Positions 53,951 to 56,555 of a stretch of DNA of 64,000 bases are shown in pieces. Origin of the DNA: a virus. Made by a program: the position numbers and the translations under genes. Under the pieces are notes generated by a model, which had not been told where the DNA came from, did no database searches, and saw nothing but the letters and a program-made list of their open reading frames with translations. The DNA lies in the IMG/VR virus record IMGVR_UViG_3300044712_000732, positions 125,776 through 189,775 of that record. One strand, written 5' to 3'. Each line of letters begins with the position of its first letter. The first letter of the stretch is position 1.

Positions 53951-54787
53951 ATGATAAGACAAGACATAAAATTTGATTTTGATGATATTTTAATTGTACC
54001 AAAAAATCAAAGTTCAATAGATACAAGAAGCATTATTAATGTGTATGATGAAAATGAAATGCTTCCATTATTTACAGCACCAATGGATACTGTTGTTGGA
54101 AATAAAAATATGGAAATATTTAAACAAAATAAAATATATCCAATAATACCTAGAACATATAAGCTATCATTTGGACCAGGTACTAATGATTCTTGGATTG
54201 ATGAATGGGTGGCATTAGGGTTAAATGATTTTGAAAAATTATTAAATATCACTAATCCATATTTTGATTTAGATCATGTTGATACCAAATATATTCTTAT
54301 TGATATTGCCAATGGTAATATGAAAAAAATGCATGATTTAATTGTAAAATCAAAAAATATTTATGGTGATAAATTACAATTAATGGTTGGTAATGTCGCT
54401 AATCCTGAAACATATAAAATAGTATCAGAATTAGGTGCTGATTATGTGCGAATTGGTGTGGGTAATGGTGGTGGGTGTTTTGTAGAAAACACAAAAGTTA
54501 TAACTAAAAGAGGAATTATAAATATTCAAGATGTCATAATTGGTGATGAAGTATTAACCCACACTGGTGAATATAAGAGAGTATATAATACAATATCATA
54601 TGAAACTTTTGAAGATTTAATTCAAATTAATGATAATATATCAACTTTAGATCATGAATATTATGTTTTAAATAAAAAATATTTAAATATAATAACCGAT
54701 GATAATATTGAAAAATATGCAGAATGGATAGAAGCAAATAAATTAACTGATGAATATTTTTTATTGGAAAACGTGGTTGATGATTAA
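53951..54787 (+). CDS. GMP reductase/IMP dehydrogenase family protein, N-terminal extein (53951-54475) fused to split-intein N-fragment (IntN, 54476-54784, 103 aa)
   Basis: N-extein FDDILIVPK...LPLFTAPMDTVV...GADYVRIGVGNGGG is GuaC/GuaB-like. Intein block A CFVENTKVITKRG directly before the catalytic Cys position. Block B ISTLDHEYYV. Stop after ...LLENVVDD. Confidence 0.8.
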   Translation: MIRQDIKFDFDDILIVPKNQSSIDTRSIINVYDENEMLPLFTAPMDTVVGNKNMEIFKQNKIYPIIPRTYKLSFGPGTNDSWIDEWVALGLNDFEKLLNITNPYFDLDHVDTKYILIDIANGNMKKMHDLIVKSKNIYGDKLQLMVGNVANPETYKIVSELGADYVRIGVGNGGGCFVENTKVITKRGIINIQDVIIGDEVLTHTGEYKRVYNTISYETFEDLIQINDNISTLDHEYYVLNKKYLNIITDDNIEKYAEWIEANKLTDEYFLLENVVDD

Positions 54788-55979
54788 CGAAAAAAAATGA
54801 GTTAAACATATTTATATATACAATAAAAAATAAATATGTTAAAAAATAAATTTTTAAAAACAAAAGAATGTGAAATATGTGGAAAAAATTTTAATGGTAT
54901 TAGTGAAAATTCTGATTATAGGTTATTTTTAAGTCACTTAAAAAATGAACACAATATATCATATGAAGATTATTATACTAAATATTATTTGAATGGTATT
55001 AAGCCGAAATGCGAATGTGGGTGTGGTAACGTTACAAAATATTATAAAGGTGAATTTAATAAATATTATGGTGATCATAAAAATAAAACTTTACCAAAAA
55101 ATAGTTCTATTAATAAAATAAAAGAAAAATTAAAAATTGTAAATAATTTAGAAAATAGATTAATAAAATTAAATTTAACAATTAATGATATCGAAGATGC
55201 TTGGGATGATTTTATAAATTTAAATAAATCTATGTCAATGATTTCAAAAGATTTATCTATTGATTTTAGAACACTTAAAAGTTATTGGTTTGAATTGAAA
55301 TTAATAGATAATAAAGAAGTTTTTAAGAGATTTACGTTAAAATCAAAAACAAAATGGTTAAATAAAATAGTTGAACCAAATGATGATAAAAAAGAATATT
55401 TAAAAAGTTTAATTCCAAATATTCATAAATATTTGGAAAATAGAAATAATGTTACAATTGATGAATTAGTTAAGTTTTTTAAATTAGATATTAATAAAAA
55501 TTATTTTTGTTTATTTTTAGATGATCAATTAAATAATAATGAAATATCAAAAATTAAATTTTTCAAATCATCAAATATTGAAATAGAATTTTTTAATGTT
55601 TTGCGGTTTTATTTTGGAAATAGTATAATACATAGTTTTGAATTAGAACATAAAATATTTGACTTTAAATTAGGTAAAAAAATTTTAATAGAATTAGATG
55701 GAGAATATTGGCATAATTTTGAACAGTCAAAGATAAATGATAAATTAAAAAATGAAATCGCTTTAAAAAATGGATATGTATTAATACGTATTAGTGATAA
55801 AAATATAAATGATTTAGATAATTTAATAAAAATAAAAAAATTATATGACAAATTTAAGTAAATATAAACTTGTTGAAATAAAAACGAAAAAAATCGTAAA
55901 TGATAAAATTCATAAAGTATATGATTTATCAGTTGAAGATAATCAGAGTTATACAGCAAATAAAATAATTGTTCATAAT
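54476..55979 (+). mobile_element. split intein (IMPDH-1-like) interrupted by a free-standing homing endonuclease gene ('fractured gene' arrangement)
   Basis: IntN ends with in-frame stops at 54785, 54803 and 54824. A separate ATG at 54836 begins the endonuclease ORF. IntC (MTNLSKYKLVEIKTKKIVNDKIHKVYDLSVEDNQSYTANKIIVHN) begins at its own ATG at 55845 in another frame and ends with HN|C at 55979/55980. Confidence 0.75.
54836..55861 (+). CDS. free-standing homing endonuclease, Vsr/DUF559-like (PD-(D/E)xK) nuclease domain with N-terminal Cys-rich region
   Basis: C-terminal KKILIELDGEYWHNFEQSKINDKLKNEIALKNGYVLIRI (ELDGxxxH motif); N-terminal CEICG...CECGCG. Sits between the intein halves. Confidence 0.65.
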   Translation: MLKNKFLKTKECEICGKNFNGISENSDYRLFLSHLKNEHNISYEDYYTKYYLNGIKPKCECGCGNVTKYYKGEFNKYYGDHKNKTLPKNSSINKIKEKLKIVNNLENRLIKLNLTINDIEDAWDDFINLNKSMSMISKDLSIDFRTLKSYWFELKLIDNKEVFKRFTLKSKTKWLNKIVEPNDDKKEYLKSLIPNIHKYLENRNNVTIDELVKFFKLDINKNYFCLFLDDQLNNNEISKIKFFKSSNIEIEFFNVLRFYFGNSIIHSFELEHKIFDFKLGKKILIELDGEYWHNFEQSKINDKLKNEIALKNGYVLIRISDKNINDLDNLIKIKKLYDKFK

Positions 55980-56555
55980 TGTCTTACATCAAAAAATGTT
56001 GGTGTTGGATATCCAATGGCATCATTAATTAAAGAATGTTATGATATTAGTTGCACATTAGATAAACCAGCAAAGATTGTTGCTGATGGTGGAATGAAAA
56101 ATTATTCGGATATCATTAAAGCATTGGGTCTTGGGGCAGATTATTGCATGGTCGGTTCAATTTTTAATCGAGCATTAGAAAGTGCAGGTGAAACATATAA
56201 AGCAAATGTTAAACACGTGGGTGTTGAAACTTGGACTGAACCAGGTGAACCAGTTGATCAATTTTCTGACGATGTGAAAAATGCATTTTTAAATGGTGCT
56301 AAATATTTCAAAAAATTTAGGGGTATGAGCACAAAAAGTGTTCAAAAATTGCTTGGGAATAAGGTTTTAACGACTTCAGAAGGTGTTACACGTATGAACC
56401 AAGTAGAATATACCCTTGAAGGTTGGACTGAAAATTTTACCCATTATTTGGCTTCTGCAATGTCATATTCAGGTGCTAAAACATTAGATGATTTTATTGG
56501 TAAAGCTGATTTTGTTAAAATAACACAGAACAGTTTTAATAGATTTAATAAGTAA
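55845..56555 (+). CDS. split-intein C-fragment (IntC, 45 aa) fused to GMP reductase/IMPDH family C-terminal extein (from Cys at 55980)
   Basis: IntC blocks F/G ...HKVYDLSVEDNQSYTANKIIVHN then CLTSKNVGVGYPMASLIKECYD...IVADGGMKNYSDIIKALGLGADYCMVGS (GuaC-like). Confidence 0.8.
   Translation: MTNLSKYKLVEIKTKKIVNDKIHKVYDLSVEDNQSYTANKIIVHNCLTSKNVGVGYPMASLIKECYDISCTLDKPAKIVADGGMKNYSDIIKALGLGADYCMVGSIFNRALESAGETYKANVKHVGVETWTEPGEPVDQFSDDVKNAFLNGAKYFKKFRGMSTKSVQKLLGNKVLTTSEGVTRMNQVEYTLEGWTENFTHYLASAMSYSGAKTLDDFIGKADFVKITQNSFNRFNK

Follow-up and report, generated by a model that had tools for sequence, protein, structure and literature searches.

A fractured IMPDH/GMP-reductase-family gene, probably of a huge phage, with a Cys+1 split intein and a free-standing Vsr-like endonuclease gene at its active-site motif

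Fractured genes, in which a coding sequence is divided by the two halves of a split intein and a free-standing endonuclease gene, were described by Dassa et al. (2009, PMC2677866), and they include three IMPDH loci with Vsr-like endonucleases, one of which is a complete locus. The IMPDH-1 intein trans-splices in vivo as well as in vitro, at a native junction GGG/SIC with an essential Ser+1 (PMC11168065; PMC7090010), and it combines an acidic N-terminal half (IntN) with a basic C-terminal half (IntC) (Dassa et al. 2009, PMC2677866). Here a further locus of this kind is analyzed, found at positions 53951-56555 of a 64,000-nucleotide stretch of viral DNA (IMG/VR record IMGVR_UViG_3300044712_000732, positions 125,776 to 189,775; the whole stretch is called the window below). 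Judged from its sequence, the locus is very probably a fractured gene, in which a composite mobile element sits inside the active-site motif GxGxGxx|C of an IMPDH/GMP-reductase-family gene of a huge phage, with splicing and cleavage being predicted activities.

The window locus shares with the IMPDH-1, IMPDH-2 and IMPDH-3 loci (PMC2677866; PMC7090010) the host gene family, the three-part layout, a free-standing Vsr-like endonuclease gene, a homologous intein and the charge polarity of its halves. Nevertheless, IMPDH-1 has a Ser+1 at GGG|SIC, two codons upstream, whereas the window intein has a Cys+1 in the catalytic column, at GGG|CLT; the IMPDH-1 endonuclease is of the NUMOD3 type (Dassa et al. 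2009), while that of the window has a four-Cys cluster and no Pfam NUMOD3 match; and IMPDH-1 is known from a short Global Ocean Sampling (GOS) read assembly, whereas the window locus lies on a 501-kb contig. The endonuclease I-Bth0305I (PMC3239194; 3R3P) has a similar C-terminal nuclease domain with the same catalytic Asp and His, but it is encoded in a group I intron of a phage recA gene and carries NUMOD-type N-terminal motifs, in contrast to the free-standing window protein encoded between intein halves. In the nrdA-a/mobE/nrdA-b locus of phage Aeh1 (PMC3045599), a free-standing endonuclease gene also breaks the host gene at its active site, overlaps the downstream half and has a hairpin on its start, but there is no intein and the halves assemble non-covalently via novel tails, whereas the window locus has complete intein halves with all the catalytic residues. 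The split PolB gene of the Pseudomonas jumbo phage MIJ3 (PMC6892783) is likewise fractured, its parts being accompanied by a putative split intein and an endonuclease of the free-standing kind; it differs in its host gene (PolB), its HNH endonuclease and its intein. The window locus has the layout that Dassa et al. (2009) took as the criterion of a fractured gene, and the proposal of the first-pass annotation that it is one was confirmed: it is a further locus of that class. The novelty that the same annotation implied for a complete locus in a phage context was overstated, given the complete IMPDH-1 locus of Dassa et al. (2009) and the fractured PolB gene of a cultured jumbo phage. The locus reveals no new mechanism; the well-supported picture is that of a relative of IMPDH-1 which is not allelic with it, uses Cys+1 and is paired with another endonuclease.

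Three consecutive open reading frames (ORFs) on the + strand make up the locus, at 53951-54787 (278 amino acids, aa), 54836-55861 (341 aa) and 55845-56555 (236 aa), and both these coordinates and the three stop codons between the first two were found as they had been annotated initially. The first ORF encodes a 175-aa N-extein ending in ...RIGVGNGGG (DYVRIGVGNGGG), followed by the 103-aa IntN (CFVENTKV...STLDHEYYV...LLENVVDD). Reading its frame onward, TAA codons are met at 54785-87, 54803-05 and 54824-26, all of them before the ATG at 54836 that opens the endonuclease ORF, which lies in the same frame and holds the string ELDGEYWH. A different frame is used by the third ORF, which shares 17 nt with the 3' end of the endonuclease ORF; it opens at its own ATG with the 45-aa IntC (...KIIVHN) before entering the C-extein at CLTSKNVGVGYPM.... 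The composite element, consisting of IntN, the endonuclease gene and IntC, has a length of 1,504 bp. By these reading frames, the gene encodes a 278-aa polypeptide, N-extein-IntN, and a separate one of 236 aa, IntC-C-extein, and translation of the C-half may be coupled to that of the endonuclease via the ORF overlap. The features of the locus are as follows, where dN/dS is the ratio of nonsynonymous to synonymous substitution rates.

53951..54475, + strand: N-extein (175 aa), IMPDH/GMP-reductase-family (Pfam IMPDH 3e-13; PHROG 9582 6e-23), continuous with the C-extein in uninterrupted homologues.
54476..54787, + strand: IntN, 103-aa split-intein half, and its TAA (Cys1 at 54476-78; block B T57-x-x-H60; aligned with IMPDH-1; dN/dS 0.13).
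54788..54835, + strand: 48-nt spacer with two more in-frame TAA codons and the 5' arm of a hairpin.
54805..54840, + strand: perfect 11-bp inverted repeat (54805-54815 / 54830-54840) with a 14-nt loop and a 3' arm containing the ATG at 54836, a predicted translational-control hairpin.
54836..55861, + strand: putative free-standing homing endonuclease gene (341 aa), with a Cys-bearing N-terminal region, a helical middle and a C-terminal EDxHD/Vsr-like nuclease.
55845..55979, + strand: IntC, 45-aa split-intein half with block F Asp and terminal Val-His-Asn (TIGR01443 32.9 bits; dN/dS 0.35).
55980..56555, + strand: C-extein (191 aa), with Cys+1 at 55980-82 (Pfam IMPDH 3.8e-22; dN/dS 0.15).
54152..56107, + strand: 1,956-bp tract 100% identical to a second phage lineage (L001/L004/L005), a candidate homing and co-conversion tract.

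Three accession series (ERR14064716-18, ERR7569998/ERR7570006 and SRR26046407) yielded six Logan contigs with the identical 341-aa endonuclease and the same three-ORF layout; one of these contigs, L003, matches the window at 100% identity over 6.6 kb and could stem from the very sample that gave the window. In another of these loci, L002, a 1-bp indel (~5870-5890; window-equivalent 54322) splits the N-extein-IntN ORF into 128 and 152 aa, being either a sequencing error or a sign of a decaying copy. Moreover, the same anatomy is seen in seven diverged loci, six of the Cys+1 type and one of the Ser+1 type, and the endonuclease and IntC ORFs overlap by 8-25 nt in all loci examined. Since the stops and the frame change recur in other assemblies and in diverged loci, they are not an assembly artefact of the window. 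A megablast search of the locus against 50,697 phage records gave no match, and a tblastn search of the endonuclease gave one match only, with 20% coverage.

The two intein halves were aligned end to end with those of the published IMPDH-1 split intein (sequences taken from the Pinto 2020 supplement, PMC7090010), giving 36/103 identities for IntN and 17/45 for IntC, with the same split point. Among nine joined inteins (the window, six diverged Cys+1 loci, one Ser+1 locus and IMPDH-1), 22 alignment columns are invariant, and these include Cys1, Thr57 and His60 of block B, Asp130 of block F, and the terminal Val-His-Asn (H147, N148), the window reading VYDLSV...IIVHN|C across blocks F and G. The sequence features of a split intein are present, namely the N-terminal Cys1, the block B TxxH, the block F Asp, the block G His-Asn followed by Cys+1, and the encoding of the halves as separate polypeptides, so that the canonical N and C halves reported in the first-pass annotation are borne out by their block residues, their alignment with IMPDH-1 and the shared split point. 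The same annotation had listed a lack of intein homology on profile search as a counter-sign, and the opposite was observed: the profile of the nine inteins matches solved inteins (the bacterial intein-like BIL 2lwy at 2e-8, gp41-1 6qaz at 9e-8, Spl DnaX 7cfv at 2e-7, and DnaB inteins), Pfam Hint_2 is matched by 9/9 members and Intein_splicing by 8/9, and TIGR01443 (intein_Cterm) is matched with 32.9-35.6 bits against a cutoff of 15.6. The net charge is -12 for IntN and +3 for IntC. Trans-splicing of the window pair is predicted from its homology to IMPDH-1 and its intact catalytic set.

Both exteins match the Pfam IMPDH family and PHROG 9582, in agreement with the GuaC/IMPDH-family assignment made originally, and the conceptual spliced sequence of 366 aa aligns end to end with GMP reductase (GMPR) models of 347 aa; this length and end-to-end match leave no room for a CBS insert. 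By sequence, the enzyme is best placed in the IMPDH/GMPR superfamily (PF00478) as a GMPR-like member, at no finer equivalog level. In the alignment with human GMPR1 (2ble), GADYVRIGVGNGGGCLTSKNVGVGYP is paired with a stretch of 26 letters and GGGCLTSKNVGVGYP with one of 15, and Cys+1 falls on the Cys of GSVC. The first C-extein residue thus sits in the catalytic-Cys column of GMP reductase, which upholds the earlier statement that the +1 nucleophile is the catalytic Cys of the enzyme. Uninterrupted genes with a constant GxGxGxxC account for 88 of the 120 closest relatives of the C-part, with lengths of about 350-378 aa. The closest of them, P0043 (91% identity over the C-extein), carries RIGVGNGGGCLTSKNVGVGYPMASL, in which the end of the N-extein meets the start of the C-extein exactly as predicted for the spliced product. 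Removal of the element restores the conserved host sequence, given that P0043 and 87 homologues read GxGxGxxCLT across the junction and that L012 carries an empty-site DNA allele.

The window and 19 other split relatives have the junction GNGGG|CLT. Two Ser+1 relatives, P0044 and P0126 (locus L014), read GIGGG|SGCLT with the same GxGxGxxC spacing, and this constant spacing places the Cys+1 insertion point two codons downstream of the IMPDH-1 point. The count of Cys+1 versus Ser+1 among the closest relatives sampled is 20 versus 2, the Cys+1 type being about ten times commoner. By these comparisons, the window intein is best described as homologous to IMPDH-1 but non-allelic with it; the earlier statement that it matches the IMPDH-1 split intein stands as regards homology and split point, but not as regards the allele, GGG|CLT being a different site from GGG/SIC. 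The endonuclease of L014 has 370 aa and a faint NUMOD3 match, with no relatedness detectable to the 341-aa protein of the window (BLASTP E=0.17; hhalign probability 1.2%). An EDxHD assignment of the L014 protein, which had been suspected from the string 'EYDEPYH', received no support from the same two comparisons and was dropped. It is possible, though doubtful, that the Cys+1 and Ser+1 forms are one intein lineage that moved by two codons, switching its nucleophile and its endonuclease partner. A third junction, ...VHN|CGCLT, was observed in P0098 and P0117, where a Cys+1 is found at the upstream, IMPDH-1-like insertion point, which brings the combinations of site and nucleophile in the family to three.

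The 341-aa protein had been taken in the first-pass annotation for a free-standing Vsr-like PD-(D/E)xK nuclease, and this view was corroborated by both profile and fold. A profile of 19 sequences, searched against the PDB, matches 3R3P with E=1e-7 across IFDF...ILIELDGEYWH...NDKLK. That structure shows the catalytic domain of I-Bth0305I, which serves as prototype for the Vsr-like EDxHD homing endonucleases, a family whose first prediction came from fractured genes (Taylor et al. 2011, PMC3239194). Two residues, D276 and H293, correspond in the alignment to D196 and H213 of I-Bth0305I, the residues mutated to inactivate the crystallised domain (PMC3239194), and E249, D276, E286, D288, H293 and D302, as well as K305, are invariant in the 19 homologues. 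An AlphaFold2 (AF2) model of the endonuclease has a predicted local distance difference test (pLDDT) score of 82.8, and Foldseek places 3r3p at the top (template-modelling score, TM, 0.69-0.71; probability 1.00; the E-value of 1.6e-3 reflects a match that spans about 90 of the 341 residues), with the DUF559 protein 3hrl at TM 0.72. Among the homologues, 12/19 match PF18741, 8/19 match DUF2726 and 6/19 match DUF559. On sequence and model together, the protein is assigned to the EDxHD/Vsr-like (I-Bth0305I) family and would be expected to cleave DNA. Pfam gave no match to NUMOD motifs in the N-terminal two-thirds of the window protein and its 19 homologues. This region contains four invariant Cys residues (C12, C59, C61 and C63, with a CxCGC cluster) and a helical region with an invariant D143-x-R145-T146...W151, and it may be a zinc-stabilised DNA-binding module. 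Six relatives of the endonuclease were sampled, with identities between 79% and 27%, and each is encoded between the two parts of a fractured IMPDH-family gene of the Cys+1 type; the contigs are up to 352 kb long. The endonuclease also has a PHROG match to phrog_559, labelled 'HNH endonuclease', and this pointed to ORFs 31120-35454, which are unrelated INT_rpt/treble-clef proteins.

A second phage lineage (L001, L002, L004 and L005) has flanking genes 74-84% identical to those of the window and a fractured gene that is 97-99% identical. Within this gene, zero mismatches are found over 1,956 bp (54152-56107), a tract made up of the 1,504-bp insert, 324 bp of the N-extein and 128 bp of the C-extein; outside it, divergence is 8-13%. 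The right edge of the tract is sharp, and its breakpoints are shared by runs of two accession series. The uninterrupted allele P0043 belongs to L012, which is 92-95% identical to L001 in the flanks, shows a 1,505-bp gap against L001 at the intein, and reads ...CGAATTGGTGTTGGTAATGGTGGTGGA|TGCTTGACATCAAAAAATGTT... at the empty site. When L001 was scored at the sites where the window and L012 differ, it agreed with L012 at 16/16 informative sites in 53958-54151 and with the window at 70/70 in 54157-56075, returning mostly to L012 from 56108 onward. A mosaic of this kind would be expected if an empty site resembling that of L012 had recently been converted from a donor similar to the window, through double-strand-break repair and co-conversion of the adjoining extein sequence, the endonuclease being the presumed cutter. 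As a separate observation on the same pair of lineages, a 91-aa ORF at 53659-53934, just upstream of the fractured gene in the window, is missing from the second lineage, where L001 shows a gap at 53660-53932, so the lineages also differ by an indel directly beside the locus.

The endonuclease start codon is paired by the perfect 11-bp inverted repeat, and folding was assessed in 63-nt windows centred on the ATG against dinucleotide shuffles in seven Cys+1 loci. The z-scores are -2.6 for the window locus, -7.2 for L016, -7.4 for L007 and -2.7 for L009, and the ATG is fully or partly paired in 7/7 loci; a first fold of 91 nt around the endonuclease start of the window had not been significant (z=-1.0). 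In L007 and L016, the 5' arm is extended so as to match the endonuclease's own first codons, the 5' arm thus co-varying with the coding sequence. Hairpins at the endonuclease start have been reported for 15/16 fractured-gene endonucleases (Dassa et al. 2009, PMC2677866) and for mobE (PMC3045599), and by analogy the hairpin of the window may regulate endonuclease translation. Upstream of the endonuclease, a conserved sequence, ACATATTTATA, is shared by the window, L016, L007, L008 and L009. It was considered as a phage-wide promoter and rejected, as it occurs once in the 64-kb window, which is what chance predicts, and it belongs to the element. Of the late-promoter-like TATAAATA, which often goes with such hairpins in fractured genes (Dassa et al. 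2009), the exact form is absent at the endonuclease start, where AATAAATA is present, with its complement TATTTATA in the 5' arm of the hairpin.

Taken as a fractured gene, the locus would work in two ways. At the protein level, the acidic IntN and the basic IntC would associate into a Hint fold and then trans-splice: Cys1 would begin with an N-S acyl shift, Cys+1 would carry out the trans-thioesterification and the terminal Asn would cyclise, yielding a 366-aa enzyme reading ...GVGNGGG-CLTSKN..., with a junction as in the uninterrupted homologues. At the DNA level, the endonuclease would cut intein-less alleles near GGTAATGGTGGTGG|TG(C/T)(C/T)T(G/T)ACATCA during co-infection, and repair would copy the entire cassette together with flanking extein sequence; translation of the endonuclease is probably held down by the hairpin that pairs its start codon. 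Other explanations of the divided gene were weighed against this one. The halves could assemble non-covalently, with the intein parts acting as high-affinity tails, like Aeh1 NrdA-a/NrdA-b split by mobE, a precedent in which a free-standing endonuclease gene splits a gene with charged tails and no splicing (PMC3045599), and IntN and IntC are indeed oppositely charged. Still, the residues needed for splicing only (C1, TxxH, the block-F D, the penultimate H, the terminal N and the +1 C) are invariant over about 40-60% divergence, the break lies directly before the catalytic-column Cys of GxGxGxxC, where an unspliced complex would put 148 extra residues in the active-site loop, and the homologous IMPDH-1 splices efficiently, so this explanation appears quite improbable. 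That the gene is dead, its enzyme inactivated by insertion of the endonuclease gene and its intein remnants decaying, would agree with the L002 indel that splits the N part and with the enzyme being accessory for a phage, but it is a very unlikely account of a locus whose arrangement is kept down to 27% endonuclease identity, with intact frames in every locus examined save L002. In the comparison of the window with L016 (endonuclease 79% identical), dN/dS is 0.13 for IntN, 0.20 for the endonuclease, 0.35 for IntC, 0.15 for the C-extein and 0.41 for the N-extein, and it is still below 1 against more distant loci; these values argue against a decaying pseudogene or a dead endonuclease and point to purifying selection on all five segments. 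It is hardly credible that the intein is a contiguous cis intein which only appears split through assembly error, readthrough or recoding, or an RNA intron, even though the endonuclease ORF of the window is in the IntN frame, alternative genetic codes occur in some huge phages, and gut jumbo phages commonly contain group I introns. The same stops are present in further assemblies from at least three accession series, and each of the three is a TAA. IntC lies in another frame and overlaps the endonuclease ORF, and in L007, L008, L010 and L011 IntN and the endonuclease do not share a frame. IntN also ends, and IntC begins, at the same points as in IMPDH-1, a proven split intein. Stop-codon recoding in particular was ruled out by the three TAA codons, the out-of-frame IntC and the non-conserved in-frame relation, and an Rfam search at E<=1 returned no group I or group II intron, with a spurious snoRNA match only.

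The preferred reading of the 1,956-bp tract as a product of homing was set against ordinary homologous recombination between co-infecting phages and against a chimeric assembly. Phage genomes are mosaic, and nuclease genes often mark the boundaries of exchange without proof of cleavage (PMC10448857); Logan contigs, moreover, are short k-mer assemblies. These origins of the tract are nonetheless held to be rather unlikely, as it is centred on the insert with short extein stretches on either side (324 and 128 bp), an empty-site allele exists in a recipient-like lineage, and the breakpoints recur in two accession series. Several results weigh against the fractured-gene interpretation as a whole. 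The window intein alone falls below the Pfam gathering cutoffs for Hint and Intein_splicing, and a single-sequence AF2 model of the joined halves has a pLDDT of only 32.8, too low to be of use. The 366-aa product scores 122.6 bits against a cutoff of 397 for GMP reductase NF003470, and 98.6 against 481.5 for IMPDH TIGR01302. Chimeric joins across shared sequence are conceivable in k-mer assemblies such as the Logan contigs, the recurrence of the breakpoints being the point on the other side. The hairpin is not significant in 3/7 loci (L008, L010 and L011), and in a genome of 25% GC hairpins arise easily. Finally, a sigma-70 promoter scan was at chance (37 versus 38.9 expected), and no terminators were found. 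A more far-reaching possibility is that the mobile element has been domesticated as a split-intein switch, which would gate an active enzyme of guanine-nucleotide metabolism both post-translationally and temporally in huge phages. This idea comes from the +1 nucleophile being the catalytic Cys, the overlap of the C-half ORF with the endonuclease ORF and the start codon lying in a hairpin, and it is regarded as doubtful.

As for the genomic setting, the window proteins are recorded on a 501,337-bp Joint Genome Institute (JGI) contig, the window has a GC content of 25.5%, and the nearest deposited relatives of the enzyme come from 460-640-kb 'uncultured phage' records and from Lak megaphages; the context is probably a huge phage. 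The first-pass annotation had expected the locus to come with both a host and a genomic context, and the 501-kb contig and a tRNA array supply the context but not the host. This array is dense and lies at 60836-63755 (+; with a partial gene at 63951-64000), with 16-17 tRNA genes (Met x3, Glu x2, Asp x3, Asn x3, Tyr x2, Cys, Ile), several of which are 84-91 nt long though not class II, and one ARAGORN call has a 2-nt 'anticodon'; the long or odd tRNAs may contain introns or be atypical in some other way. Among cultured phages, an A1-like 'DNA transfer protein' encoded at 12331-13902 (-) has its best matches in Bacteroidota phages (Maribacter, Cellulophaga and Flavobacterium, 38-42% identity), a weak sequence-based hint at Bacteroidota as the host phylum.

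Other genes of the window were noted as well. Five genes in a row at 31120-37301 (+) all have Pfam INT_rpt (integrase repeat unit) repeats, the first of them also having a DUF723/DUF4379 treble-clef zinc finger, and two of the five are PHROG-labelled as endonuclease/HNH, though none of the five is related to the EDxHD endonuclease; a PIN-domain gene lies just upstream, at 30312-31049. A family-B DNA polymerase ORF of 455 aa at 23983-25353 (-) matches PF00136 at positions 137-453 only, so its N-terminal/exonuclease part may be encoded separately, in what could be another split gene. In related huge-phage loci (regions L007 1327-2028 (-), L007 747-1325 and L008 1606-2166), the fractured gene adjoins dUTPase/dCTP-deaminase genes and lies upstream of glycosyltransferases, and in L007 a GIY-YIG/NUMOD3 endonuclease gene is found directly upstream of the fractured gene, on the opposite strand.

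Through the window locus and its relatives, fractured genes of the IMPDH family are seen to lie on very large contigs of 119-501 kb, such as have been reported for huge phages, and the IMPDH-type split intein is seen to have a second insertion site, not allelic with the first, where Cys+1 falls on the catalytic residue. The Cys+1 type is a pool of candidate trans-splicing inteins for protein engineering alongside IMPDH-1, and the locus offers a defined target sequence for an EDxHD endonuclease with a new putative DNA-binding region. The mobility of fractured genes was only presumed in their 2009 description (PMC2677866), and the donor-like, empty-site and product alleles present in public metagenomes would be direct evidence, at the level of sequence, for IntN, endonuclease and IntC moving together as one cassette.

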